This document shows, piece by piece, positions 692 through 15,029 of a stretch of DNA of 48,542 nucleotides (positions within the stretch are counted from its first letter, which is position 1; each line of letters begins with the position of its first letter). The notes below the pieces were generated by a model that worked only from the letters and a program-made list of their open reading frames with translations, was not told the origin of the DNA and did not search any database. A program made the translations under genes and the position numbers. Source of the stretch: a virus. Location of the stretch: the IMG/VR virus record IMGVR_UViG_3300038545_000026, positions 1-48,542 of that record; one strand, written 5' to 3'.

Positions 692-720
692 ATATAATTA
701 ACCTACTTAAAACAAATCAC

Positions 721-864: not shown

Positions 865-866
865 TT

Positions 867-1151
867 ATGAAAACTATAAATTTAAAAGAGTCTAATTTAG
901 TACAGATTAAAGCATTTTTTGAAACTAAATGTAGAAATAATGACATTCAAGGGTCTAAACTTGAGGCTTTATATAATTTAATTCAAAAAAAAGGAGAAGT
1001 TATGAAAATAAACAAGCCTCATAAATTCGAAGGCTTAAAAGCTTTAAATATAGGTGATGGATTTTTTATTTCATTAAAACACACGCCTATTAAAAAAGAT
1101 AGCTTCTTTCCTTGTAAATTAGACCAGTTGTACATGCAAGAGTTAAAATAA
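867..1151 (+). CDS. hypothetical protein (94 aa)
   Basis: ORF track, tightly packed with neighbours. Confidence 0.6.
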   Translation: MKTINLKESNLVQIKAFFETKCRNNDIQGSKLEALYNLIQKKGEVMKINKPHKFEGLKALNIGDGFFISLKHTPIKKDSFFPCKLDQLYMQELK

Positions 1152-1158
1152 AAATTCA

Positions 1159-1368
1159 ATGACAAAAGGCACAATGTTTATCAAGAAAGAAAAGAAAGGG
1201 TTTACGCATTTTGTAGACCCTTCAAATAATAAAACTTTTGCTTTCATTGGGCGGAACTCTGGAGGCTATTTCTTCGCCTTTGGAACTCCTACGCAAAAAG
1301 GCGGATATATCGCTTTCAATGTAAAGACAAAAGAAGAAGCAGAAAACAGAATTTTAAACAGTAACTAA
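1159..1368 (+). CDS. hypothetical protein (69 aa)
   Basis: ORF track, tight spacing. Confidence 0.6.
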   Translation: MTKGTMFIKKEKKGFTHFVDPSNNKTFAFIGRNSGGYFFAFGTPTQKGGYIAFNVKTKEEAENRILNSN

Positions 1369-1369
1369 C

Positions 1370-1564
1370 ATGAAATCAATAAAAATAAAAGCAACGCCAA
1401 ATTTTTCGAAAAGAACTTTTACTATCAGAAAATACTTCAAAAATGAACTTTTAGTAAAATACAGAACATCAAAAATGACTAAAGAAGAATTTGAATCAGA
1501 AGAAATGAACACCCAAAAAGATTGGGAGAATTTTTTAAGATATGGAGACTATTATAAGTGCTAA
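1370..1564 (+). CDS. hypothetical protein (64 aa)
   Basis: ORF track, starts 2 nt after the previous stop. Confidence 0.6.
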   Translation: MKSIKIKATPNFSKRTFTIRKYFKNELLVKYRTSKMTKEEFESEEMNTQKDWENFLRYGDYYKC

Positions 1565-1645
1565 AAAACATTAAATACTAATTAATAGCAAATATTTAGA
1601 TTTAATTATACCGCTTAGTGTTTTACATTGGGCGGTTTTAAAACA

Positions 1646-1787
1646 CTCGGCAGACATCATAAATATTTATGGTAATGTGGGAACTCCTTTCGAGGAGGTC
1701 GTAAAGCGACCTAAGAACAAAAATAAAGTGATGTAACCTAGAAATAGGAAATGCGGTAAAATGCAGGTTCAACTCCTGCTGTCGAGA
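1646..1787 (+). ncRNA. tRNA-shaped structured RNA lacking an anticodon loop (candidate tRNA-like ncRNA)
   Basis: 7-bp acceptor-like stem 1646..1652/1780..1786. Adjacent GCAGG-TTCAACT-CCTGC arm (1763..1779) matches the T-arm consensus. Internal hairpins carry UUCG (1684..1697) and GAAA (1737..1748) tetraloops. The interval is ORF-free. Confidence 0.4.
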
Positions 1788-1808
1788 CAAAATTAAAACA
1801 ACAAAATT

Positions 1809-2135
1809 ATGACCTCACAAGAAGCAAAAACAAAACTAATTGCGCTCATTGTAAAAAATGGTGTAAATATACCTAGCTATCAAAACAGAGAGTTAGAGCA
1901 TTCACATAATAAATACGGTTCATGGTCATTGGATTTTGTGTTGAAATATGATGCTTATAAAAAGAATTATGTTTCTGCTACACATTTAAATCCAGAAGAA
2001 TATGACTTTGTTTTAAGTATTGAAGATGTTGAAGAAATTGAAGTGTATGTTAACAATGACCAGATTTTGCTCAATGACAAGGATTTAACAGAAATAGAGG
2101 AAGCAATATTAATTGCTTGTAATAAAGAATTATAA
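1809..2135 (+). CDS. hypothetical protein (108 aa)
   Basis: ORF track. Confidence 0.65.
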   Translation: MTSQEAKTKLIALIVKNGVNIPSYQNRELEHSHNKYGSWSLDFVLKYDAYKKNYVSATHLNPEEYDFVLSIEDVEEIEVYVNNDQILLNDKDLTEIEEAILIACNKEL

Positions 2136-2138
2136 CCA

Positions 2139-2447
2139 ATGGAAAAGAAAATACTAACAAAAAGACTAAAAAGAATTGAGATTGAGAAAGAGTTGAAATC
2201 TCATATAAAAGACGAGCTTTTGCCCAATGCTTTAAACGATATAGACTTGCATGTAAATAATTCTAACTTTAAAATTGAAGCATTTACAAAGGGAGACCCA
2301 ACGATAAAAAATATGATTCTAAATAAGTACTTTAGGTCAGAAGAGAACTTTAATAATTTTGTATCTTGGTTTGAAGCTATCATTGACCGACCAATGACAG
2401 ACGAAGAAAAACAAAGAGCAAGAAATAATTCAATAACTAAATTTTAA
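2139..2447 (+). CDS. hypothetical protein (102 aa)
   Basis: ORF track. Confidence 0.65.
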   Translation: MEKKILTKRLKRIEIEKELKSHIKDELLPNALNDIDLHVNNSNFKIEAFTKGDPTIKNMILNKYFRSEENFNNFVSWFEAIIDRPMTDEEKQRARNNSITKF

Positions 2448-2451
2448 TATT

Positions 2452-2643
2452 ATGTTAATAACAGGAAAAATGCAACACGACGCAACAGAAGATGAAAGGC
2501 TAGATAAAGAAATGGAAGATGAAATATTTGAACAAAAAAAGCACCTTTCAAAATACATTGATAACATAAATAGCTTACTAGGAAAATCTAGGTCTAAAGA
2601 AGTTAGAAAATCAATGATTCAATTTTTAGTAGAATCTTTATAA
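2452..2643 (+). CDS. hypothetical protein (63 aa)
   Basis: ORF track. Confidence 0.6.
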   Translation: MLITGKMQHDATEDERLDKEMEDEIFEQKKHLSKYIDNINSLLGKSRSKEVRKSMIQFLVESL

Positions 2644-2654
2644 AAAACCGCCCA

Positions 2655-2756
2655 ATGAAAGAACCCAAATTATTAAACACCTACCAAAAAATATTAATAC
2701 TGTTAGCTACTATTATAGCTACTGCATTACTTTTAATTAATTTAAATCACTTTTAA
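2655..2756 (+). CDS. small membrane protein (33 aa)
   Basis: Hand-translated MKEPKLLNTYQKILILLATIIATALLLINLNHF with a single TM helix. Confidence 0.4.
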   Translation: MKEPKLLNTYQKILILLATIIATALLLINLNHF

Positions 2757-2766
2757 AATATAACCA

Positions 2767-3012
2767 ATGAGCGAAATCATATACCTTAAAAAAGTCTGGA
2801 ATCTAGGTTCTGAATCCTTTCAAAAAATCATAAAAAATGTTGGGATATTGAATGTTGATGAAACACTAGGTATTTCAACTAAAAAAGATGTAGAAACAGA
2901 TTCTATTTTAAACATAGCATTAAATCAAGGCTATAAAAAAACCACCAAAGAAGAATTTGACAAGGCTTACATAGAAGTGGTCAATGAAATTAATGAACTT
3001 TCAAAACTTTAA
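2767..3012 (+). CDS. hypothetical protein (81 aa)
   Basis: ORF track. Confidence 0.6.
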   Translation: MSEIIYLKKVWNLGSESFQKIIKNVGILNVDETLGISTKKDVETDSILNIALNQGYKKTTKEEFDKAYIEVVNEINELSKL

Positions 3013-3017
3013 ATACA

Positions 3018-3686
3018 ATGAGCGAAAATAATTTACCAGCAATAACAAAAGAAGAATTAACAAAAGCAAACGACAATATGCTTAACGCTGACCAGCTTGG
3101 TTTTCTTCTTAAAAAAACACCAAAAAATCATGTCTACCAAAGACCAGGAAAAGGTGGCGCAACATGGAATTATGTAACAGGAACTTATGTAAAAAAAGTG
3201 CTTAACTTAATGTTTGGATGGGATTGGTCGTTTGAAGTTGTGGAGCATAAATTTGACTTAGTAATTGGTCAAGCTTACGTTTTAGGAAAGCTAACGGTTA
3301 ATAGTCAAGGTAAAAGCATAGTTAAAATGCAATTTGGTAGAGTTGATATAAAGTTTAAAAGACAAACAAGTCAGCAAATTCAAAACAATGAGTCAAAGTT
3401 GCCATTGGACATAGGAAATGACTTAAAAGCAGCAACAACAGACGCATTGAAAAAATGTGCCGCAGAACTCGGTATTGCTTCAGACGTTTACTCTCCTAAT
3501 GAGTTTAAAGAAATTCAAATCTTAAAAGACGAGAATCCGACTATTGACCCTGAAGAAGAAAGAATCAAATCGACCCTTGAAAACATTACAACCCAAGAAG
3601 AACTAGAAAACATCAGACCTCAAATAACTGAAAAATACCTACCGCTTTTTAAAGAAGCTCAAAAACGAATTAATAAAAAACAATAA
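3018..3686 (+). CDS. Rad52/Sak-like single-strand annealing protein
   Basis: GATWNYVTGTYV...FGWDWSFEV and KKCAAELGIASDVY resemble the Rad52/22 annealase core. Sits next to an exonuclease-like gene. Confidence 0.7.
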   Translation: MSENNLPAITKEELTKANDNMLNADQLGFLLKKTPKNHVYQRPGKGGATWNYVTGTYVKKVLNLMFGWDWSFEVVEHKFDLVIGQAYVLGKLTVNSQGKSIVKMQFGRVDIKFKRQTSQQIQNNESKLPLDIGNDLKAATTDALKKCAAELGIASDVYSPNEFKEIQILKDENPTIDPEEERIKSTLENITTQEELENIRPQITEKYLPLFKEAQKRINKKQ

Positions 3687-3688
3687 CC

Positions 3689-4711
3689 ATGAACTTCGAT
3701 AATTTCTTATTTAGAGCCTCACAAGCGCATTTTCTTACCGTTGGTAATATTGGATTAAACAATGAGCAAAAAGAGAGAAAGAAAGAGCTTGAATTAAGAA
3801 AAACCACATACTATTCTCTTACTGAAAAACAAGAAAAAACAGTTAAAGAATATACTGCTAAAGAAAACACTTTAACTGAGAAGCAAAAAAAAGAACTTAA
3901 TAGACTTAAGGAGAAAAAGAAAACACTTATCGGTTTAACACCTACCATGACTGAAGAGTTAAATGATTTAGCTTATATAGACGAAACACAGCCGTTGCCA
4001 AAAACGATGCAAACAGAATTACGAAAAATATACAGATCAACAAAGTATAATCGTAAATTCTTGTTTACTAACAAATATGTTCAGAAAGGAATTTCACAAG
4101 AAGAAGAAAGCTTTACCACATACCAACAATGGCTTAAAAAAGTTAAAGGAATTGATTTCCTACTTTTAAATAACAAGGTTAGAATTGAAAATGATTTCTT
4201 TACTGGCGAAACAGATTGCAATGAGCACTTCTACAACAAATTTGGTTGGGGATTTGACATAAAGACTTCTTGGTCAATAGAAACTTTTCCTTTTAAAGAA
4301 GACAAACTTGACGATAATTATTTTTGGCAAAACCAAGTTTATATGAATCTAACTGGAATCAAAAAATGGAAAACTGTTTACGTTCTGGTCAATGCTACTG
4401 AAGACGCGCTTCATAAAGAAAAAATGAAATACTTCTACGCTTACGAAATGCATCAAAGCGAAAGAAACGAAGAAAAATACAAAGAAGTTTGTCGTGATCT
4501 TGAAAAACTTCACATCGTTGATTATGATAGATTTGTTTTTCTTAATCCAGGACATGAACTAGAAATAACTCGTGATGAATGGCATGGTAACAATTGGGAC
4601 ATTCCGCTCATTGACCGAGTTCTCGAAAAAGAATTACAATACAGCGAATCAAAAATAAACTTCCTAAAAAACAGAGTGAAAATTGCTCGTGAGGAATTGA
4701 ATAGAATTTGA
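3689..4711 (+). CDS. PD-(D/E)XK (YqaJ/lambda-Exo-like) recombination exonuclease candidate with a coiled-coil N-terminus
   Basis: GETD...GFDIKTSW fits a D...(D/E)xK nuclease motif. Immediately downstream of the annealase. Confidence 0.55.
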   Translation: MNFDNFLFRASQAHFLTVGNIGLNNEQKERKKELELRKTTYYSLTEKQEKTVKEYTAKENTLTEKQKKELNRLKEKKKTLIGLTPTMTEELNDLAYIDETQPLPKTMQTELRKIYRSTKYNRKFLFTNKYVQKGISQEEESFTTYQQWLKKVKGIDFLLLNNKVRIENDFFTGETDCNEHFYNKFGWGFDIKTSWSIETFPFKEDKLDDNYFWQNQVYMNLTGIKKWKTVYVLVNATEDALHKEKMKYFYAYEMHQSERNEEKYKEVCRDLEKLHIVDYDRFVFLNPGHELEITRDEWHGNNWDIPLIDRVLEKELQYSESKINFLKNRVKIAREELNRI

Positions 4712-4732
4712 TTACGTCCCTCGGTGGGCTAT

Positions 4733-4800
4733 TCTACCTAACGGTATGTATATGCACCGTATGAGGTACGAATATGGGGTATATATGATGTTACCCAAAG
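4733..4800. repeat. Intergenic imperfect palindromic element (family member A)
   Basis: CTACCTAACGG arm, ACGGT/ACCGT and GGGTA/TACCC hairpins, TATATGATGTTACCC arm. Confidence 0.55.
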
Positions 4801-4831
4801 TACGGATTATTAATTACAAAACTTAAATAGA

Positions 4832-5257
4832 ATGACAAAATTAGAGAATTACTTAGAAGATGGTGCTAACTACCAAGCAAGAGCAACTTTAATGTTTTTA
4901 CAAAGAGATGCTGATATTGAAGAAAGTTGGAATGATGAATGGAAAAGATACGATGCAGAAATACAAGTTGCTCGTTGGGAAAATTGCAGAGAGCAAGGTT
5001 ATGTAGTAAGCCTTAGAAACAAAAAGCGTGAGCAGTTAAATATCGCATTTTTTGAACACAGAAACTCGGATAGTATTTGTGCTGTAAAATGGCAACAAGA
5101 AAGCATGAACACACTAACCATTGACAATGCAAAATTTGGCGATGTGTATAAAGACAAATACGATACTTCACATTCTGTTGGTTATGGGAAGGCTTATGAA
5201 ATGGCTGAATGGATTATTGAACAACTTAGAGAACATTGGATAAAAGCACAGTCGTAG
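4832..5257 (+). CDS. hypothetical protein (141 aa)
   Basis: ORF track. Confidence 0.65.
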   Translation: MTKLENYLEDGANYQARATLMFLQRDADIEESWNDEWKRYDAEIQVARWENCREQGYVVSLRNKKREQLNIAFFEHRNSDSICAVKWQQESMNTLTIDNAKFGDVYKDKYDTSHSVGYGKAYEMAEWIIEQLREHWIKAQS

Positions 5258-5259
5258 TA

Positions 5260-5444
5260 TTGTGGGTAACGGGCAGCGTGTAAGGTTCGTGGATGCGCAG
5301 CATACACATTAGAACCGTTTGAGCTGCGCATCTATAAGCTTTAAACATTGTTAGCTATCTGTAGCCCAGCGATTAGAAATGAACAAAATAAATATTAACA
5401 GACGATTGCCGATGCGTAGCCATACGTTGACCGTTAGCCTACAA
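5260..5444. repeat. Composite intergenic palindromic element (family members B/C)
   Basis: TTGTGGGTAACGG (5260..5272) is inverted at CCGTTAGCCTACAA (5431..5444). Perfect 10-bp stem GATGCGCAGC/GCTGCGCATC (5292..5301 / 5323..5332). CATTGTTAGCTATCTG arm at 5346..5361. Confidence 0.65.
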
Positions 5445-5471
5445 TAAGCAATCTTTTAAACTATTAAAATT

Positions 5472-5597
5472 ATGAAATTTGATGATTGTGAACACAACTA
5501 TGGAACATACACTTGTTTTGAATCAGGTTATGAAAGGTGTAAAGCTTGTGGTGTTGTAATGAACGCTAGTAAAGAAGAATTTTATTCTGATGAATAA
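5472..5597 (+). CDS. small 4-Cys protein (41 aa), zinc-ribbon-like
   Basis: Hand-translated MKFDDCEHNYGTYTCFESGYERCKACGVVMNASKEEFYSDE. Confidence 0.4.
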   Translation: MKFDDCEHNYGTYTCFESGYERCKACGVVMNASKEEFYSDE

Positions 5598-5649
5598 TGC
5601 AAAAATGCAGTAATAATTTTACTGGTTTGATTGCGTGCCTCGATGGATA

Positions 5650-5711
5650 TTGTAGGCTAACTGTTTGTATAACCATCCGTTTTAATGGTGGTTATACGTT
5701 GTTAACTACTG
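5650..5711. repeat. Intergenic palindromic element (family member D)
   Basis: TTGTAGGCTAACTG arm, stem GTATAACCATC/GGTGGTTATAC (5667..5677 / 5687..5697), ATACGTTGTTAACTACTG arm. Confidence 0.65.
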
Positions 5712-5793
5712 TTATTTTTGTGCGGTGGCAAATTAATTTTGATAAAAATTAAAATATTTCTTTAAAATAGTTGTGTATATCATATATATAATA

Positions 5794-5801
5794 TATATTT
5801 G
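5794..5801 (+). promoter_or_regulatory. Bacteroidota-type -7 box TATATTTG (TAnnTTTG)
   Basis: Exact consensus, TTG about 23 nt upstream, 40 nt before the ATG at 5841. Confidence 0.45.
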
Positions 5802-5840
5802 TACTGTTGCAATGAAGCAATAACCTTAAACCTTTTAATT

Positions 5841-6065
5841 ATGAATACTTTAAACAACATAGTAGAAATGAACTTAACTCAAAGAGAAATAAACATTATA
5901 GCTTTTGAAGCCGAAGGTGTTAATCCTTACGATGCTAATATGATGGATGAGTTTTCTGTAAACACTTTTCATAGAATAATGAAAGCGTCTACCACTATAT
6001 TAAGCCCTTCTTATGTGGTTAGAAGATGTTATTTTCTTGTTAACGGTAAAAAATTATCAAACTAA
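5841..6065 (+). CDS. hypothetical protein (74 aa; start moved to the internal ATG downstream of the promoter box)
   Basis: The track ORF 5799..6065 would begin inside the -7 box. The MNTLNN start lies 40 nt downstream of it. Confidence 0.55.
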   Translation: MNTLNNIVEMNLTQREINIIAFEAEGVNPYDANMMDEFSVNTFHRIMKASTTILSPSYVVRRCYFLVNGKKLSN

Positions 6066-6235
6066 TGAACGATACACAAATAGAAACTTTAAACTGGTAT
6101 AAAAAAAACAGTTCAAAGTTTAAGAACATAGAATTTAAAATAACCTTAAAAGATGGTACTTTGAAGATAGTTACTAAAACCCATATTTATATAATGGGTA
6201 AAAGAGGCGGATTAATAAACATAGAAATACGATAA
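6065..6235 (+). CDS. hypothetical protein (56 aa)
   Basis: Hand-translated, TAATG overlap with the upstream gene. Confidence 0.5.
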   Translation: MNDTQIETLNWYKKNSSKFKNIEFKITLKDGTLKIVTKTHIYIMGKRGGLINIEIR

Positions 6236-6237
6236 TT

Positions 6238-6411
6238 ATGGACTTTTTAAATATGAATTTACCACCAGAGGATGAAAACAGTAACAAGTTTCCAAAATTA
6301 GATACTTGGTTTTATTTTATGAATGAGCAAATGGAAGAACTTGAAAAAGTACAACAAAAAGGTAGGATAAACTCATTGCTTTTTGATAATGATATAGATT
6401 TAATAGAATGA
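6238..6411 (+). CDS. hypothetical protein (57 aa)
   Basis: Hand-translated, ATGA overlap with the next ORF. Confidence 0.5.
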   Translation: MDFLNMNLPPEDENSNKFPKLDTWFYFMNEQMEELEKVQQKGRINSLLFDNDIDLIE

Positions 6412-6554
6412 GAAAACTAATAGACATAAAAGAAAAAGACATTGAACCATTAAAGATAATGGCAGTTAAGTCAAATAAAGACCTTAAAAACTACATTCAA
6501 GACGTTTTGAGTGAGCACGTTCTGCTTGGTGGCAAAAAAAATAATTGTAGTTAA
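6408..6554 (+). CDS. small protein (48 aa), possibly ribbon-helix-helix-like
   Basis: Hand-translated MRKLIDIKEKDIEPLKIMAVKSNKDLKNYIQDVLSEHVLLGG... The strand-helix-helix pattern is only suggestive. Confidence 0.4.
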   Translation: MRKLIDIKEKDIEPLKIMAVKSNKDLKNYIQDVLSEHVLLGGKKNNCS

Positions 6555-6635
6555 CGTTGAGCGTATGAAACGTAGCGTTTAGAAAGCACAAACTTTGAAT
6601 TAAACATTAACATTAATAATTAAATATTTTTTTAA

Positions 6636-6863
6636 ATGAAAACACAAGAAAGAGTTATATTAAATAGTGGAATTGTAGAAGAGAAAGGTTTTGAATGTGG
6701 CAATACGAATTGGTATTATAATGGTGAATTAAACCTTATTTTATGGTGTTGGGATACTTGGACTTTAGAAAGACCGCCTAAAAGCGCAGATGAAAGAGCG
6801 AAAGTAATAAAAGATAAAATTAGATATGTTGATGAGTTGGAAGATGTTTTAAAAAATATTTAA
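6636..6863 (+). CDS. hypothetical protein (75 aa)
   Basis: ORF track. Confidence 0.6.
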   Translation: MKTQERVILNSGIVEEKGFECGNTNWYYNGELNLILWCWDTWTLERPPKSADERAKVIKDKIRYVDELEDVLKNI

Positions 6864-7110
6864 TTATGGGTAAGTACACACGAAATAGATGGTTAAGCTC
6901 TTATGTAGCTATGTTTTATACGCATTGTTGTAAACCGCAGGGAACTGTTAATTTAAAACATTAAGAATGAAAGAACCAAAGCAGATAAGCGATAGAATAA
7001 AAGACCTTAAAAAAATTAAAAAAGAGTTTGACGAAGAGCCAATAACTAATAGACAGGAAATTAAAATACTTAATGACCGGATAAAGACTCTTGAATGGGT
7101 TTTAAATTAA

Positions 7111-7213
7111 TTGTTTACAACGGACGAGTGTATAGCAAGTAAGCCACGCGCTAAACTTTGAATTGAAATAATAACTTAATTGGCTTATTTGCTATACATA
7201 TTGTTAGCAACTG
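7111..7213. repeat. Intergenic long imperfect hairpin (family member G)
   Basis: TTGTTTACAACGG arm. A 19-nt stem GTGTATAGCAAGTAAGCCA (7128..7146) pairs with TGGCTTATTTGCTATACAT (7181..7199). TATACATATTGTTAGCAACTG arm. Confidence 0.7.
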
Positions 7214-7236
7214 GGCGGTTTTAAAACGAGAATATT

Positions 7237-7530
7237 ATGATGTACGCAAGTAAAATAGAAATAAAGTACGAACCACAAAAGGTTAGATACCAACGTGAAG
7301 TAGAGCTACCCGATAGGCTACTAACACTTGAAGATATAGGTAAACACCTAAAAGAAGGTGAGAAGTTTGGTTTCTTCCAAAGAGAAGAAGGAAGGCTTGG
7401 ACTACCTGTTGACTACATAAGCATACATGGGTACAGAGATGAAACCAAAGAAGAAGTAGATATAAGGGTAGCGAAAGCGGAGGAGTACAATGAAAACTAT
7501 GAAAAGTTTCATGCGAAGTACAGAAAGTAG
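7237..7530 (+). CDS. hypothetical protein (97 aa)
   Basis: ORF track. Confidence 0.65.
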   Translation: MMYASKIEIKYEPQKVRYQREVELPDRLLTLEDIGKHLKEGEKFGFFQREEGRLGLPVDYISIHGYRDETKEEVDIRVAKAEEYNENYEKFHAKYRK

Positions 7531-7532
7531 CC

Positions 7533-7674
7533 TTGTTGCTAACGGAAAAGTATATGAAAAGTAGGGGATTAAAAGTAAGTGACGTTTATTGTGGCGATAA
7601 TTTTGCAGACGTGCAGATAGCTCCGATTCTCAATAAATTACCCCCTATTTTTTATATACATTGTTACCTATCTG
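7533..7674. repeat. Intergenic palindromic element (family member H)
   Basis: TTGTTGCTAACGG (7533..7545) and ATATACATTGTTACCTATCTG (7654..7674), followed by TTAAAAACCGCC. Confidence 0.6.
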
Positions 7675-7728
7675 TAATTTTTAAAAACCGCCTGCGTGAG
7701 GTACGAGGGCAAATAAAACACAAAGAGA

Positions 7729-8439
7729 ATGAAATATATGGGAAGTAAAAATAGGTTTGCAAAGTATTTGTTACCTATAATTTTAAAAGACAGAAAGCCA
7801 AATCAATGGTATGTAGAGCCCTTTGTTGGTGGATGTAATATGATTGATAAAGTACAGGGTCATAGAATTGGTGCTGATGCAAATAAATATCTTATTGCTA
7901 TGTGGAAAGGATTGCAAGAGGATTTAAAAAGACCTTTGGAAATACCAAGAGAATTACACGCAGAAGCAAGGACTGAATATAATAACAGACAAAGCAATAA
8001 ATTTACAGATTTTGAAATTGGTTGGATTGGCTTTATGGCTTCTTTTAATGGTAGATTTTTTGGTGGTGGATATTCTGGAAAGCATAAAAATAGAGATTAT
8101 GTAAACGAGCAAATAAGAAACACAACTAAACAAATACCATTAATAAAAACAGTTGATTTTTACGATTGCGAATACCAAGATTTAGATATACCAAGTGAAA
8201 GTATAATTTATTGTGATATACCATATCAAGGAACAAAAGTATATGATAGTAAATTAGTTTTTGATTACCCTAACTTTTGGCAATGGTGTAGAGATATGAC
8301 AAAACAAGGACATAAAGTATTTATTTCAGAATACAATGCTCCAGAAGATTTTAAATGCTTATGGGAAAAAGAAACTAAAGTATCTATAAGACCTACAAAA
8401 ACATTAATTCAAACCGAAAAGTTATTCACGTATGAGTGA
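7729..8439 (+). CDS. dam: N6-adenine DNA methyltransferase, Dam/D12 class
   Basis: YMGSKNRF...EPFVGG (motif I) and CDIPYQG (DPPY-type motif IV), about 236 aa like T4/E. coli Dam. Confidence 0.85.
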   Translation: MKYMGSKNRFAKYLLPIILKDRKPNQWYVEPFVGGCNMIDKVQGHRIGADANKYLIAMWKGLQEDLKRPLEIPRELHAEARTEYNNRQSNKFTDFEIGWIGFMASFNGRFFGGGYSGKHKNRDYVNEQIRNTTKQIPLIKTVDFYDCEYQDLDIPSESIIYCDIPYQGTKVYDSKLVFDYPNFWQWCRDMTKQGHKVFISEYNAPEDFKCLWEKETKVSIRPTKTLIQTEKLFTYE

Positions 8440-8459
8440 GTGGCGGTTTTTAAAAATTA

Positions 8460-8597
8460 TTGTAGGTAACGGTTTGTATATGATTTTGTAGGCATAGACA
8501 AACGGATAATTTACGATTAACACCTACTTAAAAGACAAGAATTAAACATTGAAATATTAACCAACCGCCTATAAATTATATACTTTGTTATATGTAG
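8460..8597. repeat. Intergenic palindromic element (family member I)
   Basis: TTGTAGGTAACGG arm, CGGTTTGTATATG/CATAGACAAACGG stem, TATACTTTGTTATATGTAG arm. Confidence 0.6.
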
Positions 8598-8621
8598 TGC
8601 GGTTTTAAAAGACAAAATCTT

Positions 8622-8981
8622 ATGGGATGGGATTGCGATGATAAATTAGACCAAATGGGTGAAGATGCTAAAAGACATTTAAAAGACCATATAGAAATGT
8701 TATACATACAGGCAGTAAGCAAACTTTCTCCTAAAACAAAAAATGACACATCTAAAAAATTAGATAGTAAATTGATAGAAAACTTCCTTAAAAAACGAGG
8801 TTATACTATGAATTATGTTTTAGGAAAAACGGTTATGGTAAAAGCATTTACTTGTGTATATGTGCAAGATGATTATGTAGAAGTATGGCACGATAAAACA
8901 AACAATGATAAATCCGTTTTTGTTAATGAAAGTTTACTTACGGGATTGCCTATTACACTTAATTATATGGAACGAATTTAG
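8622..8981 (+). CDS. hypothetical protein (119 aa)
   Basis: ORF track. Confidence 0.6.
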   Translation: MGWDCDDKLDQMGEDAKRHLKDHIEMLYIQAVSKLSPKTKNDTSKKLDSKLIENFLKKRGYTMNYVLGKTVMVKAFTCVYVQDDYVEVWHDKTNNDKSVFVNESLLTGLPITLNYMERI

Positions 8982-9087
8982 CATTATATATAACGTTAAA
9001 GTATAAGACGTGTTGCTGAATTAAGAACAAACCATTATTAATATGCCATAAAAAAACAAAAAAGGTGTGGCAATAAAAACTAAAAAT

Positions 9088-9507
9088 ATGATTGTAAAGA
9101 CAAAATTTAGAGCCTTTTGTGAGGTGGAAACAGACAAAGGAACTGTAAATGAACTTATGTACTTTGATCCAATGGAGTGTGATAACGGACTTTGGTTTTC
9201 TGCTCCAGATAATGTTTGGCATATAAACGAGTATTTTATACTAATGCAATGGACTGGATTAAAAGACAAAAATGGAATTGATATTTACGAAGGTGATGTA
9301 GTAAAAGTGAATAAAGACGAGATAGGAAGTATTGACTTTAATAGGGGTAATTTTTGGGTAGGATTTTATCAAGAACCTTCACAACAAAACTTATCTGACT
9401 TTGTTAAATACAATTCTAAAACAGATGCTTACGACATTGTAGAAGTTGAAATAGTTGGCAAAATAGATTTTGAAAATGTAACAAGACATTTAACCGTAAG
9501 TAGCTAA
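9088..9507 (+). CDS. YopX-family protein
   Basis: LMQWTGLKDKNGIDIYEGDVVKV matches the YopX core. The track start at 9067 is GTG, so the first ATG (9088) is preferred. Confidence 0.75.
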   Translation: MIVKTKFRAFCEVETDKGTVNELMYFDPMECDNGLWFSAPDNVWHINEYFILMQWTGLKDKNGIDIYEGDVVKVNKDEIGSIDFNRGNFWVGFYQEPSQQNLSDFVKYNSKTDAYDIVEVEIVGKIDFENVTRHLTVSS

Positions 9508-9533
9508 AAAAGCGCAAAGGCTTTTGTTTTTTT
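9506..9533 (+). terminator. weak intrinsic terminator
   Basis: AAAAGC-GCAAAG-GCTTTT hairpin followed by a T-rich run. Confidence 0.4.
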
Positions 9534-9587
9534 ACATTGGGTTAAGAACTGACCTTAATAATTAAGCACAAGCCTTGCAATACGTTT

Positions 9588-9660
9588 TATACGGTGTTAC
9601 CAACTGGCGCACCTTATAGAGTATTGATAAACGCAACCTTTGTGCGCTTGTTGGTAACGG
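9588..9660. repeat. Intergenic palindromic element (family member K)
   Basis: GGTGTTACCAACTGGCGCAC (9593..9612) is inverted at GTGCGCTTGTTGGTAACGG (9642..9660). Confidence 0.7.
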
Positions 9661-9713
9661 ATGGTGGTATGAGTAGTAAATAAAACGGATTAATAAACTA
9701 AAAATTAAATATT

Positions 9714-9926
9714 ATGACAACTGAAGAAAACAAAACAGAAATTACAAAATTAAGCACTTGGGATATGGCAGACACTGTTGTAAAATGGGAAGGATATGAC
9801 CAGACAACAATACCTGAACCAACTGCAAGAAATATGAAATTGTATATGGATAAAATAAATGAACTTACAGAAGCTGTAAATAAATTAACTGCACTTAATA
9901 AGGGCTTAATTGATGCACTAAAGTAG
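9714..9926 (+). CDS. hypothetical protein (70 aa)
   Basis: ORF track. Confidence 0.6.
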   Translation: MTTEENKTEITKLSTWDMADTVVKWEGYDQTTIPEPTARNMKLYMDKINELTEAVNKLTALNKGLIDALK

Positions 9927-9976
9927 TTTTATTTATTACTTATACCACGTGTTGTAAAATCGTTTTAATGTTTTAC

Positions 9977-10013
9977 AACTATCATATATCAACAATACTA
10001 GAAAAATCAACAC
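9977..10013 (+). repeat. 37-bp direct repeat, copy 1 (27-bp perfect core 9987..10013)
   Basis: AACTATCATATATCAACAATACTAGAAAAATCAACAC matches 17087..17123 at 35/37 positions. Ends 7 nt before the integrase ATG. Confidence 0.9.
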
Positions 10014-10020
10014 ATAAGAT

Positions 10021-10815
10021 ATGAGTTTATACAAAATTACAGAACAAAAATTGTATTATTTAGGATATTCAGAAAACACTATTAAAACTTATTTGAATTA
10101 CATTTTTGAGTTTGACCAATGGTCGAAAAAACATCACTCAAGGTTAAATTCAAAAGACATTCAAGTGTATTTAGATGATTACAAATTCAGTTCTAGGTCA
10201 CAACAAAACCAAGTTATAAGCTCATTAAAGTTTGCATGGGAAAAAGTTCTTGGTAAGAAGTATTTAAAAATTGATTTTAAAAGACCTAAAAAACAAAAGA
10301 AATTACCCAAAATAATTGACGCAGAATTACTAGCTGAAAAAATCAAAAGTATTAGTAATTTAAAACACAGAGCAATATTAACTATAGGTCTTAGCTGTGG
10401 ATTAAGAGTTTCAGAAGTTATAAATCTTAAATGGGAACATTTAGACCGTAAAAGAAATATCTTAAACGTTGTAAATGGAAAAGGTAGTAAAGATAGATGT
10501 TGTGTGTTGAATGATGATTTAATATTGTTATTAGAGGATTATTGGAGAGAGTTTAAATCTAAGGAATATATTTTCAATGGTCAAAAGTCGTTAAAATATT
10601 CTCAAAGCAGTATTCAAAGTATAGTTAAGAATTACATACATAGAAACGCTTCATTTCACTTTTTGCGTCATTCGTATAGCACGTTTGCTATTGATAATGG
10701 AACAGAATTAAAGCCTTTAGCGTATAGTTTAGGTCATAATTCTACAAAAACAGTTGAACAGTTTTATTTTCATCAATCAACAAAAACTTTAAAAACTATA
10801 AAGCAAGCTATCTAA
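10021..10815 (+). CDS. int: tyrosine recombinase/integrase (XerC/D-like, 264 aa)
   Basis: N-terminal SAM-like core-binding domain. Catalytic signature GLRVSEV ... HFLRHSYST ... LGHNSTKTVEQFY (R, HxxR, H, Y). Confidence 0.85.
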   Translation: MSLYKITEQKLYYLGYSENTIKTYLNYIFEFDQWSKKHHSRLNSKDIQVYLDDYKFSSRSQQNQVISSLKFAWEKVLGKKYLKIDFKRPKKQKKLPKIIDAELLAEKIKSISNLKHRAILTIGLSCGLRVSEVINLKWEHLDRKRNILNVVNGKGSKDRCCVLNDDLILLLEDYWREFKSKEYIFNGQKSLKYSQSSIQSIVKNYIHRNASFHFLRHSYSTFAIDNGTELKPLAYSLGHNSTKTVEQFYFHQSTKTLKTIKQAI

Positions 10816-11474
10816 TGAAAAAATGCAAAGGAACAGGTAAAGCTAAAGGATTTGGCTGCAATAAAGAACTAGATTTTGTCATTGGTCAAAACGGTATTAA
10901 ATCGTATAAAGCAAAGTACGGTTTGGGTTATGCCTGTGGATGTTTTGCTAAATGGCTTTATACTTCTGAAAAAGGAGAAGAGATACTTCATAAATCAATG
11001 ACCGTTGCAAAACGTAAAGTTGAGAAAGAAAAGAAAGCAGAAACAAGACGTAAAAAAGACGAATTAAACAGCTCTAGAGCAATGAAGCTTGCAGATATGT
11101 ATTTTAGCCAATATATACGCTTAAAACACTCTGAAAATGGCTTTTGTACTTGTTATACTTGTGGAGATATAAATCCCATTAAAGGCACGGACAATGGTCA
11201 TTGGCAAAAGCGCAAAGAGAAATCTACTAGATACCATGAAAACAATTGTAGACCACAATGCCGAACGTGTAACGGTAATACAGCTAAAAACGGTATGCAA
11301 TTAGAGTTTAGAGAAAACCTAGTTAGAGAACTTGGAGAAGATGAAGTGCAAGAATTAGAAAGATTAGCGAAAACAACAATAGATGCTAACAGTTACTTTT
11401 ATAGAGCTATTGCAACGAAATATCGTAAACTGGTCAATGACCTACAAAAAGAATTAGGAGTTAAATACTGGTAA
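10815..11474 (+). CDS. ninG: NinG/Rap-like recombination endonuclease
   Basis: CKGTGKAKGFGC plus CYTCGD...GHWQKR...CRPQCRTCNG...EFRENLVRELGEDEVQELE matches the lambda NinG pattern. Confidence 0.75.
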   Translation: MKKCKGTGKAKGFGCNKELDFVIGQNGIKSYKAKYGLGYACGCFAKWLYTSEKGEEILHKSMTVAKRKVEKEKKAETRRKKDELNSSRAMKLADMYFSQYIRLKHSENGFCTCYTCGDINPIKGTDNGHWQKRKEKSTRYHENNCRPQCRTCNGNTAKNGMQLEFRENLVRELGEDEVQELERLAKTTIDANSYFYRAIATKYRKLVNDLQKELGVKYW

Positions 11475-11490
11475 TAAAAAAATATTAATC

Positions 11491-11775
11491 ATGAAAATAT
11501 ACATTGGAAAAAACAAAAAAGAGGCTAAACAAATATCATTAAAAGATTTATTAGCTCTAAAATTAAGTCAAGACTTGAAAGATAAAAACGTATGTAGAAA
11601 AGGTAGATTTAGTGATGATTCTGCGTCATGGATAGATTTACGAAAGACAACAGAAAAAGGAGCTATTGATATTGTTATATGTTTTGACCCTGAAACAGAA
11701 AATACTTTTACAGATATTGACGTTTATAAAAGCAAATGGATTTTAGACGAAGAGAATATGAAAAAACTAACTTAA
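11491..11775 (+). CDS. hypothetical protein (94 aa)
   Basis: ORF track. Confidence 0.6.
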   Translation: MKIYIGKNKKEAKQISLKDLLALKLSQDLKDKNVCRKGRFSDDSASWIDLRKTTEKGAIDIVICFDPETENTFTDIDVYKSKWILDEENMKKLT

Positions 11776-11830
11776 ACGAAATAAGAAACTATTACAAACA
11801 AAAAATAAAAGAATCAAAAAACAATGACCA

Positions 11831-11995
11831 ATGAGAAATCTATCATTCAAACAATTCTGTGACAAAGTAAAAGGACACAAATTCTACAATAAACAAGGGT
11901 CGGAAATTTACAAATACGAGTTATACTACTTAGGTATTAATCCGCACTTGTTAATGATTAATGAAACTAAGTATATCAAAATGAAAAGAAAGTAA
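11831..11995 (+). CDS. hypothetical protein (54 aa)
   Basis: Hand-translated MRNLSFKQFCDKVKGHKFYNKQGSEIYKYELYYLG... Confidence 0.4.
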   Translation: MRNLSFKQFCDKVKGHKFYNKQGSEIYKYELYYLGINPHLLMINETKYIKMKRK

Positions 11996-12013
11996 ACTAA
12001 AACCCTAAAAACC

Positions 12014-12556
12014 ATGATTACTAACAGAATTATTAAACACATGGTCGAGAACTACATGAGAATAGAAAGTCTTTCTATAAACTCACGTAAAAGAGTTTAT
12101 GTAGACTCTCGGTCAGTGTATTACAAGCTATGTAGAGTGTTTTCAAGAAACCGTTCTTATGAAATGATAGGAAAGCAAATAGGTAGAAATCACGCAACTG
12201 TAATTCATGGAGAAAAACTATTCGACGACCTTTATGGAACCATTGGTTTTTCCGTGATGAGTATTATGTATGACAACCTATATAAACAGTTATTAATTTT
12301 AGCAGACGAACCTGAACAAGTTTGTGAAATTCAGCAGCTACAAGACGCTAAAAGATATTATAGGGCTAGATATATTGCTCAGATTGATAAATCACATTCT
12401 GTAATAAGCACATTGACCAGCAAAGTAAATTTGCTCACAAAAAACGATTTGGTTAAGAAAATCTTGAACCTTGATGCAGAAGGAATCGAAGAACTAGAGG
12501 AAAGACTAACACCCTTTTTTAAAATGAAAGAACAAAATAAAATAACTAAACCTTGA
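12014..12556 (+). CDS. DnaA-domain-IV-like helix-turn-helix protein (possible replication initiator/regulator)
   Basis: SRKRVYVDSRSVYYKLCRVFS..SYEMIGKQIGRNHATVIHGEKLFDDL parallels the DnaA C-terminal DNA-binding domain. Confidence 0.6.
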   Translation: MITNRIIKHMVENYMRIESLSINSRKRVYVDSRSVYYKLCRVFSRNRSYEMIGKQIGRNHATVIHGEKLFDDLYGTIGFSVMSIMYDNLYKQLLILADEPEQVCEIQQLQDAKRYYRARYIAQIDKSHSVISTLTSKVNLLTKNDLVKKILNLDAEGIEELEERLTPFFKMKEQNKITKP

Positions 12557-12576
12557 TTTATTAAGATATTTTTAGT

Positions 12577-12584
12577 TATATTTG
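12577..12584 (+). promoter_or_regulatory. Bacteroidota-type -7 box TATATTTG
   Basis: Exact TAnnTTTG with TTG about 24 nt upstream. No ORF follows. Confidence 0.45.
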
Positions 12585-12589
12585 CATTG

Positions 12590-12683
12590 TGCGCCTGACA
12601 ATAGCACAGCAAGAAATACAATATAAAGGTTTTACCGAAGTAGTCAGTCAGGCGGCGAAAAGGTAAAGCCTTTTTTGTTTTTT
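12590..12683 (+). ncRNA. candidate ~95-nt small RNA or attenuator
   Basis: Bounded by the promoter box and a terminator. Competing pairings: TGTGC/GCACA hairpin versus CGCCTGAC (12592..12599) pairing with GTCAGGCG in the terminator loop. Confidence 0.4.
12625..12683 (+). terminator. intrinsic terminator
   Basis: 12-bp stem AAAGGTTTTACC/GGTAAAGCCTTT followed by TTTTTTGTTTTTT. Confidence 0.55.
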
Positions 12684-13047
12684 AAGCGCAATACAGGGAC
12701 TTTTTTATAAAAGCTGACAATTGGAAAACAAATAAGAAAATGCAGTACAATGGGATGTAAGCATACTGCAAGGCCAATGCGAAATAGGGATGGCCGCTTA
12801 CAAAACACCGAAAGTGGATTAAGCCCTAAACTTTTACTAAACGGTTAAAGTAAAAGACCTTTACAAGACTCAGAACTCATTTGAACTGAATGTTTAGGTA
12901 TACGCAAGGTACTAGGCCTTGCTATACCCTCTAAGATCTAGAATCTAATTACCTGAATGTTTAATACTCTAATAATATATACTTATAATAATCATTAAAA
13001 TCAACTAATTATATAAAATAATAGTTTGTTTTAAATATTTAAATTAA

Positions 13048-13055
13048 TATATTTG
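13048..13055 (+). promoter_or_regulatory. Bacteroidota-type -7 box TATATTTG
   Basis: Exact consensus 26 nt upstream of the ATG at 13081, TTTG about 23 nt upstream. Confidence 0.45.
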
Positions 13056-13080
13056 TATTAGAAGTTTTATTTATATAATT

Positions 13081-13707: not shown

Positions 13708-13758
13708 TCTTGGCCAATGATAATACTTAACTTTAAAAGGCTATAAATTGAATTAACT

Positions 13759-13983: not shown

Positions 13984-13986
13984 GCT

Positions 13987-14330: not shown

Positions 14331-14334
14331 AACA

Positions 14335-15027: not shown

Positions 15028-15029
15028 TC

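Follow-up and report, generated by a model that had tools for sequence, protein, structure and literature searches.

What are the long palindromes that separate the early genes of this marine phage? An initial annotation of the window (the whole 48,542-nt stretch analysed, IMG/VR record IMGVR_UViG_3300038545_000026) had described repeated imperfect hairpins with conserved outer arms in the intergenic gaps, and counts of arms, stems and covariance-model matches confirmed that these repeats are real. The arm motif TTGTNNNTAACGG (≤1 mismatch) occurred 11 times against 2.98 expected, a number reached in 0 of 100 shuffles, and 8 of the 11 matches lay within 4.7-9.7 kb at the positions reported for the arms. 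A scanner for box-hairpin-box arrangements returned five matches with at least 12 Watson-Crick (WC) pairs and three with at least 14, compared to 0.73 and 0.03 in shuffles, respectively. The four inner stems described previously were also recovered: 7128-7146/7181-7199 (17 WC + 2 G·T), 5667-5677/5687-5697 (10 WC + 1 G·T), the last stem as 9596-9612/9642-9658 (15 WC + 1 G·T), and 5292-5301/5323-5332, which is perfect and part of a longer stem. Furthermore, the covariance model R1, trained solely on 23 elements from 17 other viral contigs, recovered ten copies in the window (E ≤ 0.017), every one on the local sense strand. The spacers, said to be richer in GC than the genes, are barely so (0.321 vs 0.311).

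The elements share one layout. From 5' on the folding strand, an A box (xyzYAAC) and a linker of 5-6 nt precede GTATA(T/A)G and the variable stem; beyond the loop, the return stem ends in TATAC, and a linker of 2-3 nt leads to the B box (GTTRzyxAC). The initial annotation had missed a pairing rule between boxes flanking the same gene: a gene's upstream GTTAzyxAC box is complementary to its downstream xyzTAAC box. The "inverse arm" is not the mate across the local hairpin; its real mate lies downstream, past the next gene. The suggested compensatory variation was correct as covariation but assigned the wrong partner to the outer arms. Each gene or gene group between its B box and its own A box is a cassette, and because these two boxes are complementary, only a cassette whose two ends are joined yields a full palindrome with paired outer arms. 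Among 221 pairs of adjacent elements from all loci retrieved for this comparison, 69 matched at six or more of the seven variable positions; shuffling of partners (2000 trials) gave a mean of 2.6 such pairs and a maximum of 9.

In the window, conserved boxes and variable stems form a continuous chain from 4732 to 9979, in which ten box helices alternate without gaps with nine stems. The chain ends 42 nt 5' of a tyrosine recombinase gene (Table 1). Throughout this early region, the + strand is both the coding strand and the folding strand. The A boxes start 0-2 nt past the upstream stop codon, or include it, in six of nine cases. The seeming half sites 6545/6917, 8984/9588 and 9648/9951 proved to be complete elements, each with a gene enclosed in its stem. 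Similarly, the outlier arm placed inside an ORF at 16797-16817 belongs to a full intergenic member, whose cassette closes at 17079-17089 and whose gene probably starts at ATG 16851. R1 added three minus-strand copies, at 35.2, 36.3 and 43.1 kb, to those originally listed.

Table 1 Elements and recombinase locus of the window. E values are those of covariance model R1
Feature	Position	Strand	Boxes and stem	Pairing and context	E value
Element 1	4732-4800	+	A box TTCTACCTAAC 4732-4742; B box GTTACCCAAAG 4790-4800		3.3e-7
Element 1 stem	4747-4762/4772-4787	+	loop GAGGTACGA	11 WC + 4 G·T
Element 2 (complex)	5260-5444	+	A box TTGTGGGTAAC 5260-5270; stem 5281-5301/5323-5343; B-like box 5350-5360; B box GTTAGCCTACAA 5433-5444	A box closes cassette of gene 4832-5257 (B1/A1 boxes: 9 WC + 1 G·T)	3.5e-4 (5260-5360)
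Element 3 (minimal form)	5650-5711	+	A box TTGTAGGCTAAC; stem 5667-5677/5687-5697; loop CGTTTTAAT; B box GTTAACTACTG	A box 12/12 complementary to 5433-5444, spanning gene 5472-5597	1.1e-9
Element 4, left half	6545-6576	+	A box TTGTAGTTAAC; left stem arm 6561-6576	A box mates with B box 5701-5711, four genes between; its TAA doubles as stop codon of ORF 6408-6554
Element 4, right half	6908-6937	+	right stem arm 6908-6923; B box GTTGTAAAC 6927-6935	stem 14 WC + 2 G·T, enclosing gene 6636-6863
Element 5	7111-7213	+	A box TTGTTTACAAC; stem 7128-7146/7181-7199; B box GTTAGCAACTG	A box 9/9 paired with 6927-6935, spanning gene 6967-7110	1.5e-5
Element 6	7533-7692	+	A box TTGTTGCTAAC; stem 7550-7569/7640-7659; B box GTTACCTATCT lengthened by TTTTTAAAAACCGCC up to 7692	A box mates with 7203-7213, spanning gene 7237-7530	2e-5
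Element 7	8443-8597	+	GGCGGTTTTTAAAAA + A box TTGTAGGTAAC (8443-8470); stem 8476-8493/8567-8583; B box GTTATATGTAG	8443-8470 forms 26-WC helix with 7663-7692, spanning Dam methylase gene 7729-8439	4.7e-6
Element 8, left half	8984-9016	+	A box TTATATATAAC; left stem arm 9001-9016	A box mates with 8587-8597, spanning gene 8622-8981
Element 8, right half, and empty cassette	9577-9658	+	right stem arm 9577-9592; empty-cassette B box 9596-9612 and A box 9642-9658	stem 14 WC + 2 G·T, enclosing YopX gene 9067-9507; empty-cassette boxes mate, 29 nt between extended helix arms
Element 9, left stem arm	9666-9686	+
Element 9, right stem arm and boxes	9926-9979	+	arm 9926-9946; B box GTTGTAAAA 9951-9959; terminal A box TTTTACAAC 9971-9979	stem 19 WC + 2 G·T, enclosing gene 9714-9926; boxes 9/9 paired over 11-nt loop TCGTTTTAATG
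Conserved 41-nt leader	9980-10020	+	TATCATATATCAACAATACTAGAAAAATCAACAC...	terminal A box to recombinase start codon
Tyrosine recombinase, 264 aa, Xer/IntI clade	10021-10815	+		Pfam Phage_int_SAM_4 + Phage_integrase
Element 11	16679-16817	+	A box AAGTTTATAAC; stem 16696-16713/16786-16803; B box GTTAGCAGTAG		0.017
A box and second leader copy	17079-17168	+	A box TTACTGCTAAC 17079-17089	A box vs 16807-16817: 10 WC + 1 G·T; its TAA is stop codon of cassette ORF; 3' of it, 80%-identical copy of leader + first 38 nt of recombinase ORF
Minimal element	35214-35272	-		closes 1-kb cassette	2e-6
Late-region element	36283-36419	-	B box GTTGTAAAACG	B box matches A box 35261-35271	3.6e-4
Minimal element	43125-43183	-			5.5e-6

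The elements are polar. In viral loci, 63 of 68 elements had a longer linker on the 5' than on the 3' side, and G·T outnumbered A·C pairs on the sense strand (108 vs 15). In chromosomal arrays of the same family in Bacteroidota, the polarity was reversed (71 of 87 elements; 29 G·T vs 92 A·C), and Infernal matches assigned the same strands. Two G·T wobbles lie 10 and 15 nt 5' of the 3' GTT, mostly with the T on the 3' arm. Of 114 viral elements, 70 carried the first and 77 the second; of 102 bacterial elements, 21 and 63 did so, respectively. The unequal linkers and these fixed wobbles mark a single folding strand. In phages this is the coding strand, whereas in bacteria it runs antisense to the genes.

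As the phage folding strand is the mRNA strand, the stems could have a role at the RNA level, folding in a polycistronic early transcript to attenuate it, stabilise 3' ends or allow processing of the RNase III type. Cross-gene pairing would then place every cistron between the two arms of a stem, as is the case in rRNA precursors, and cassette boundaries would lie there merely because such junctions are tolerated. The G·T (G·U) excess agrees with this, as do the better fold energies of the + strand (Element 2: z = -4.5 vs -2.0 on the - strand), the enclosure of genes by both kinds of helix, and stems of 16-21 bp, approximately the length that an RNase III substrate needs, as established for the processing of T7 early mRNA. 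However, in 24 of 30 bacterial arrays the same architecture and wobbles lie antisense to the genes, and the minus-strand cassette at 35.3-36.3 kb contains two ORFs (35278-35859 and 35908-36183) on the + strand, antisense to its elements; element polarity thus follows the genome arm, not the gene. No Rfam family matched, T-runs are missing 3' of the stems, and the recombinase and introns described below suggest a DNA-level structure. We regard an RNA function as quite improbable. Of the roles proposed initially, promoter plus terminator is unsupported, since no T-run follows the stems 3' and the distance from box to ATG is only 34-44 nt in six of eight cases. The host-type TAnnTTTG boxes are clustered at a single place in the array (5713-5801).

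The recombinase scored 146 bits against NCBIfam NF040815 ('tyrosine recombinase/integron integrase') and 102 bits, in two stretches, against TIGR02249 (integron integrase), with XerC-like, XerA and IntI4 proteins as its best PDB matches. All six residues at catalytic positions (R129, K154, H213, R216, H239, Y249) are invariant. The insertion that defines integron integrases is absent; the corresponding stretch of the bacterial homolog measures 30 aa vs 73 in IntI4. Homologs adjoin arrays in five further loci (L007, L284, L270, L364, L247), and the Bacteroidota arrays adjoin longer homologs. When loci were picked by the recombinase alone, four of four (L367, L368/L369, L371, L372) carried elements upstream of it, not counting a fifth (L370) that begins at the recombinase gene. 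Relative to element polarity, phage and bacterial arrays have the recombinase on the same side. The leader recurs at the equivalent position in L007, L367, L368 and L372, and it is a candidate attI-like site or a candidate promoter/leader of the recombinase gene.

The element family is also present in many viral contigs and in the Polaribacter phages P12002L and P12002S, where a published predicted attC site, P12002L_attC1 (Qi et al. 2023, PMC9892861), equals the element at 18627-18689 of our P12002L locus (L120). A test of one family member with IntI1 gave no verified junction. All public copies of the phage genome studied here are identical and thus show no cassette movement directly. Variation between relatives was found: P12002L and P12002S, whose main collinear blocks share 97.6-99.7% identity, differ by cassette gains, losses and swaps that break inside elements. 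Four of five junctions fall at xAAC(G)|, the other in the TGTAT next to it, and one hairpin travels with its downstream gene. In addition, the Dam methylase cassette of the window is 80.6% identical to a methylase cassette of P12002L over 7653-8482, with both ends of the match within conserved boxes.

Despite many elements and this cassette turnover, neither a recombinase homolog nor an annotated integrase was found in P12002L or P12002S. Such swapping without this recombinase could reflect relaxed homologous recombination, in which the short boxes provide no more than microhomology to a Rad52-like annealing protein and an exonuclease, both encoded directly upstream of the array (3018-4711), here and in both relatives. 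A precedent is the PeSLs, conserved intergenic cassettes of T4-type phages (PMC2839356, PMC4122927), and the junction off the A box fits homology-driven exchange. We judge this unlikely, as it leaves unexplained why variable bases in boxes flanking the same gene stay complementary, as well as the fixed wobbles, unequal linkers and strand polarity. Moreover, the element includes no host-type promoter motif, and the recombinase is linked to arrays in both phages and bacteria.

A transposase acting in trans could have spread selfish REP- or MITE-like palindromes into intergenic gaps. This would account for the many copies, conserved at their ends and variable inside, and for gene-free ones such as 9596-9658 and 9951-9979. 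Of this initial suggestion only mobility stands, and the mobile unit carries genes. Target-site duplication was noted at no copy, no HUH or DDE transposase was present among the scanned ORFs (those outside the late region), and independent insertions would not yield a single ordered chain with boxes matched across genes. This origin is very improbable.

We consider it likely that the palindromes serve an integron-like system with inverted cassette orientation as cassette-junction sites of the attC type, so the phage probably has an exchange system of its own for accessory genes. Recognition by a recombinase, the third role proposed initially, is favoured by the pairing rule, the breakpoints at boxes in sister phages, the adjacent Xer/IntI-clade recombinase, the identical architecture of bacterial arrays, and group II introns at an attC-type target. 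Three such introns occur in a relative (L372) on the folding strand at TATAC-GGT-GT|TA, just 3' of the hairpin, one of them in the orthologue of Element 11; once the exons are rejoined, each restored B box matches the A box downstream of it.

In the proposed mechanism, the folding strand would be exposed as single-stranded DNA and fold; with a replication origin at the GC-skew minimum (0/48.5 kb), it would be the lagging-strand template on both genome arms. A tyrosine recombinase would then bind the box helix and the GTATA/TATAC helix and exchange strands in or beside YAA|C. Cassettes could thereby leave the array, presumably as circles, re-enter it and be exchanged. The recombinase encoded directly past the terminal A box is the candidate enzyme, and the leader may act as its attI-like site. 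In P12002L and P12002S, the sites might be used by a helper recombinase, or the annealing protein and exonuclease might act on the short conserved boxes.

Compared to known integrons, the sites differ in several respects. Only 1 of 12 A boxes and none of 11 B boxes shows the RYYY/RRRY pattern of canonical boxes, the loops fall into a few conserved types, unlike those of attC, and three genes lie in hairpin loops, which an integron model does not predict. On the integron bottom strand, R' is the counterpart of the A box and R'' that of the B box, and integron cassettes are defined by the relation seen here between the boxes around a gene, that of core and inverse core. The L372 introns resemble group IIC-attC introns in placement; the latter target TTGT/T within R'' on the bottom strand of attC (PMC7923331). 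In integrons, as in the Bacteroidota arrays, the folding strand is antisense to the genes; the phage array has similar attC-type sites with its genes on the opposite strand. Integron-like cassettes are a known kind, and what would be new here is their inverted orientation in a phage.

The window spans a complete phage genome (about 48.4 kb, ~31% GC) with a 127-nt terminal overlap. Its genes switch from the + to the - strand at ~19 kb, and the GC skew has its minimum at the ends and its maximum at 19 kb. Tandem 20-nt repeats (ATTTTTTTATnACTTTTnnnA) at 17-83 and 48432-48498, within the terminal overlap and at the skew minimum, may be replication-origin or packaging iterons. Several public assemblies contain the same genome, and since all copies are 100% identical, no cassette polymorphism is visible in them. 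The nearest named relatives are the Polaribacter phages P12002L and P12002S, with ~63% amino-acid identity in the Rad52-like protein; the exonuclease, used as a probe against viral contigs, found no relatives. The gene order in the region runs from the Rad52-like protein and the exonuclease (3018-4711) through small ORFans, a Dam methylase and YopX to a 264-aa tyrosine recombinase (10021-10815) and NinG.

The initial annotation had described long imperfect palindromes with conserved arms between these early genes. Its arm motif was borne out, with 11 matches against 2.98 expected and eight of them inside the early region, and the stems it listed do pair; the spacers, which take up 31% of 4712-10020, proved only marginally richer in GC than the genes (0.321 vs 0.311). 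A box-hairpin-box scanner returned far more strong matches in the window than in shuffled sequence. Moreover, a covariance model trained solely on elements from 17 other viral contigs recovered ten window copies (E <= 0.017), all on the local sense strand. Each element consists of a hairpin between an outer A box and an outer B box (see table). The YAAC and GTTR cores were kept in every scored copy, both being demanded by the custom scanner, and the full integron-type patterns fitted 1/12 A boxes (RYYYAAC) and 0/11 B boxes (GTTRRRY). As in attC sites, a conserved inner box pair (GTATA(T/A)G / TATAC) is set off from the outer boxes by short unpaired linkers. The hairpin loops fall into few conserved types, e.g. 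CGTTTTAATG, and bulges are absent from most copies; the P12002L element known as P12002L_attC1 has one extra T in its 3' arm.

Table. Parts of the element, pairings across genes in the window, and bacterial arrays lying beside Xer-like recombinases
Feature	Sequence, size or position	Strand	Remark
A box	TTGTxyzTAAC	+	starts 0-2 nt past upstream stop codon, or includes it, in 6/9
5' linker (A box to stem)	mostly 5-6 nt	+	
Stem	opens GTATA(T/A)G, return arm closes TATAC	+	
Loop	4 to ~150 nt	+	
3' linker (stem to B box)	mostly 2-3 nt	+	
B box	GTTAzyxAC(T)G	+	next start codon 34-44 nt away in 6/8
B box with A box across a gene	5433-5444 with 5650-5661		12/12 complementary
B box with A box across a gene	7203-7213 with 7533-7543		
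Pairing that spans the Dam gene	7663-7692 with 8443-8470		26 base pairs
Stem enclosing a gene	6561-6576/6908-6923		
Stem enclosing a gene	9001-9016/9577-9592		YopX
Stem enclosing a gene	9666-9686/9926-9946		
Array beside Xer-like recombinase	L364		Rufibacter glacialis
Array beside Xer-like recombinase	L284		Chryseolinea
Array beside Xer-like recombinase	L270		Chitinophaga
Array beside Xer-like recombinase	L247, L282, L317		

The B box is complementary not to the A box across its own hairpin but to the one downstream of the next gene, and what look like half sites are whole elements with gene-enclosing stems. Eight gene-bearing and two empty cassettes in the window, a cassette being a gene or gene group whose upstream B box is complementary to its own downstream A box, follow this pairing rule. 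Among the cassette ORFs, Pfam recognized only the Dam methylase, YopX and one sub-threshold Prefoldin match, and the sole other match, in PHROG, was one family of unknown function (ORF 4832-5257). The element chain is uninterrupted over 4732-9979; its last members, a B and an A box, pair into a 9-bp hairpin, after which come a 41-nt leader and the recombinase start codon. An additional unit at 16679-17089 precedes a second copy (80% identical) of the leader together with the first 38 nt of the recombinase gene, and the late region carries three more element copies on the minus strand.

Three further features of the array were noted. The direct repeat of 82 nt at 9977-10058 and 17087-17168 (80% identical) suggests a past rearrangement at the array end; its second copy lies after the A box at 17079-17089 and before the ORF at 17172-17696, and the 7.1 kb between the copies hold the recombinase, NinG, a DnaA C-terminal-like protein and a KilA-N protein. 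Methyltransferase cassettes, around which an extended A/T-plus-GC helix forms, carry an extra inverted repeat, found in the window at 7678-7692 / 8443-8457 (TTTTTAAAAACCGCC ... GGCGGTTTTTAAAAA) and in P12002L at about 17790-17810 / 18616-18630 (AAAAAAGGGC ... GCCCTTTTTTT), which resembles a bidirectional terminator split by the gene, the latter occupying the loop. Finally, an AT-rich 130-nt stretch (5712-5840) after the B box at 5701 contains three host-type TAnnTTTG boxes (5713, 5734 and 5794); it is the only promoter-like cluster within the array and precedes a four-gene cassette.

Several roles proposed for the palindromes found no support. The boxes depart from the Bacteroidetes -33/-7 consensus and its spacing, and no element contains a host-type -7 box (TAnnTTTG), contrary to a promoter role; a terminator role is likewise disfavoured by the missing T-run after the stems. 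For REP/BIME elements with a RAYT, or MITEs, no HUH or DDE transposase domain was present in 25 different ORFs scanned outside the late region of the window, and no target-site duplication was noted on reading the element copies. The ordered chain with matched partners also argues against independent insertions of this kind. An Rfam scan of window 1-19000 (E <= 5) returned only a chance GcvB match, so the elements belong to no known RNA family.

In addition to pairing, the elements have a strand polarity. Among the matches listed, the 5' linker on the gene-sense strand of viral loci exceeded the 3' linker in 63/68 elements, and G.T pairs and A.C mismatches numbered 108 and 15, respectively. 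Bacterial arrays reverse the linker pattern (71/87) and the ratio of G.T to A.C (29 vs 92), again among the matches listed, and Infernal matches agree on the element strands. The G.T wobbles are not randomly placed: they lie 10 and 15 nt upstream of the 3' GTT, 5 nt apart, in most viral elements, and the one at position 15 was found in most bacterial elements too. Their T is mostly on the 3' arm. Unequal linkers and fixed wobbles thus mark one strand as the folding strand. ORFs were located on this strand in 19/22 viral loci, contrary to the top-strand ORFs of attC cassettes, and antisense to it, as expected for attC, in 24/30 Bacteroidota genome loci (both among the matches listed). The folding strand is the coding strand in phages, whereas in bacteria it is antisense to the genes, like the integron bottom strand.

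A two-gene unit at 35278-36183 has + strand ORFs (193 and 91 aa) between minus-strand elements at 36283-36419 and 35214-35272. These ORFs are opposed to the surrounding late genes, coincide with a local reversal of GC and AT skew and gave no family matches at curated thresholds. As the unit is bracketed by matched boxes, it represents a cassette inserted in the structural-gene arm, and this minus-strand cassette (35.3-36.3 kb) with its + strand ORFs shows that element polarity tracks the genome arm rather than the gene. The folding strand would be the lagging-strand template in both arms, provided that replication begins at the skew minimum.

Since the folding strand is also the coding strand in phages, an RNA-level role there, alone or additional, is possible. 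The RNase III hairpins of T7 offer a parallel, being imperfect, ~20 bp long and located between nearly all early genes on the transcript strand. However, they are local RNA hairpins with neither conserved flanking boxes nor cross-gene pairing, and nothing in them corresponds to elements on the antisense strand of bacterial arrays.

Two loose DNA patterns alone gave mostly single chance matches and became informative only after the structure-scanner filter. With pattern scans and this filter, arrays were found in many viral contigs among the matches listed, and 69/221 adjacent element pairs matched at >=6/7 positions compared to 2.6 expected (among the matches listed). A scan of bacterial genomes yielded at least 120 loci, mostly in Bacteroidota, with linked elements in 32 (among the matches listed). 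Many copies are also present in P12002L and P12002S. Across their main collinear blocks, these two phages are 97.6-99.7% identical. What distinguishes them is inserted and replaced cassettes, whose junctions fell at xAAC(G)| in four of five cases and in the adjoining TGTAT in the fifth; in one insertion, the hairpin moves with the downstream gene. The two genomes also have differing sets of DNA methyltransferase cassettes at equal array positions, which fits rapid exchange of anti-restriction genes.

Exchange driven by homology, alone or additional, is possible as well, especially in phages without a recombinase, and no recombinase homolog was found in P12002L and P12002S. The PeSLs of T4-type phages (Arbiol et al. 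2010, PMC2839356; Comeau et al. 2014, PMC4122927) are thought to work in this way and, by analogy, can be regarded as the closest phage counterpart for repeat-bordered gene shuffling: they too are repeated intergenic stem-loops in plastic early regions and mark the edges of insertions, deletions and replacements that separate close relatives. Yet PeSLs combine a promoter with a terminator, and the window elements cannot be counted among them, as an early promoter consensus with a terminator stem-loop is not present. Strict cross-gene pairing, strand polarity and a linked tyrosine recombinase further set the window elements apart from PeSLs, and they have no promoter consensus and no T-run.

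The linked 264-aa recombinase is an Xer/IntI-clade protein with all six catalytic-position residues (R, K, H, R, H, Y) intact. A homolog with 50% identity adjoins the array of a viral contig (L007) in the same position. All four loci picked by the recombinase alone (L367, L368/L369, L371 and L372) have elements upstream of it and share a terminal A box and a conserved leader; L370 begins at the recombinase gene and was therefore left out of this count. The leader of ~40 nt after the terminal A box is conserved in five phage or prophage genomes, and no Pc-type promoter was identified beside the recombinase. We also considered that the enzyme might be a lysogeny integrase with an adjacent attP, which is unlikely. 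In the chromosome of Winogradskyella forsetii, phage genes flank the gene on either side within a prophage-like region, and its upstream leader is intact, which argues against a split attP there.

In bacterial genomes, longer homologs of this recombinase (31-40% identity, 333-423 aa as called) lie directly upstream of the cassettes in L364, L284, L270 and L247, and relative to element polarity they occupy the same side of the array as in phages. A canonical IntI, sought in 8-kb stretches of the five best bacterial arrays, was not found; the Xer-like homologs are instead present at other array loci. The IntI-defining insertion is missing in the Xer-like recombinases checked; the L364 homolog has 30 aa where IntI4 (2a3v) has 73 aa. 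In line with this, TIGR02249 scores were 102-194 bits, below the cutoff of 265. The insertion is not fully conserved in an 'integron-like' subgroup (Smyshlyaev et al. 2021, PMC8138268), and complete integrons were almost absent from Bacteroidetes with IntegronFinder 2.0 (PMC9024848). We found no published description of Bacteroidota arrays beside Xer-like recombinases. Arrays of canonical polarity lie directly downstream of such recombinases in L364, L284, L270, L247 and L296, and four of these five enzymes share a conserved ~100-aa N-terminal extension, that of L364 being shorter and unrelated.

A separate line of evidence comes from Changchengzhania lutea (L372; CP039456.1, 241123-257929 reversed). 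At 500-6830, the folding strand there harbours three group II introns identical to one another; the cassettes that hold them are arranged in tandem, and a C5 DNA methylase and the small recombinase follow downstream. Each intron encodes a 426-aa reverse transcriptase/maturase without an endonuclease domain. All three are inserted at TATAC-GGT-GT|TA, directly past the hairpin and at the same position of the 3' box, and rejoining the exons restores B boxes that match their downstream A boxes. One intron-bearing element is orthologous to window 16696-16817. Group IIC-attC introns target TTGT/T in R'', past the stem-loop that the attC bottom strand forms (PMC7923331). Judged by this intron target, the elements would be attC-type hairpins, the B box would correspond to R'', and the phage coding strand to the 'bottom' strand; by analogy, the introns thus provide an independent identification of the elements.

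The architecture, polarity and conservation of the elements are observed features, as are the pairing rule, the breakpoints, the recombinase linkage and the intron targeting, and the latter four favour the initially suggested role as recombinase recognition sites. We therefore consider it probable that the elements serve as attC-type junctions between cassettes in an integron-like system whose cassette orientation is inverted. For this system, the catalyst, the crossover point, a circular intermediate and folding as a single strand are inferred. With less assurance, we propose that marine Flavobacteriia siphophages may possess a self-contained, phage-adapted integron that captures and reorders early accessory genes such as methyltransferases. 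Its components would be an attI-like site, at least ten attC-like sites with the coding (lagging-template) strand as the recombinogenic one, and a minimal Xer-like integrase that lacks the IntI insertion. Such an integron would be the phage branch of a cassette system spanning the Bacteroidota, which standard integron finders overlook since it departs from them in integrase signature as well as in attC model.

Integrons count as gene-capture devices of bacteria, and attC sites in phages have so far been read as stray integron pieces. Here, the arrays are complete and ordered, have their own strand logic and, in the window phage, lie beside a dedicated recombinase. Should cassette exchange be driven by this recombinase, Flavobacteriia phages, both lytic and temperate, would own a built-in means of swapping early genes, e.g. 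anti-restriction methyltransferases, which would help to explain whole-gene cassette differences between closely related phages. The results also suggest that a large number of chromosomal arrays in Bacteroidota are served by Xer-like recombinases without the IntI insertion, which bears on the origin of integron integrases from Xer proteins and on cassette diversity overlooked by current tools. The contrast in gene orientation between phages and bacteria provides a natural test of strand choice in relation to replication and expression.

Two clustered attC sites had been predicted in P12002L and were interpreted as phage-borne integron components (Qi et al. 2023, Front Microbiol 14:1091391, PMC9892861). 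One of them, P12002L_attC1, is the P12002L element at 18627-18689 and thus a member of this family; it was the sole site of six tested without a verified IntI1 x attI1 junction (PMC9892861). The cassettes of P12002L include DNA methyltransferases, and the phage is lytic and lacks an integron integrase. That study makes no mention of element chains across the genome, of inverted gene orientation, of G.T pairs at fixed positions, of cassette differences between P12002L and P12002S or of a linked phage recombinase.

Compared with canonical integrons, the phage system shares imperfect palindromes with YAAC/GTTR outer boxes, an inner box pair and an unpaired spacer, a cassette-start box complementary to the cassette-end box, and one marked folding strand. 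Also common to both are a recombinase gene at one array end by a conserved non-palindromic site, group II introns at TGT/T past the hairpin, and cassettes that are mostly ORFans. In contrast to canonical integrons, phage cassette ORFs lie on the folding ('bottom') strand, the recombinase has only 264 aa and no IntI-specific insertion, and most copies have two fixed G.T wobbles in place of bulged extrahelical bases. The RYYY/RRRY pattern is absent, loop types are few and conserved, and some genes lie within hairpin loops. The Bacteroidota arrays agree with those of the phages in element consensus, pairing rule and wobble positions, but differ in their longer recombinases and in their genes, which are opposite to the folding strand, i.e., in the canonical integron orientation.
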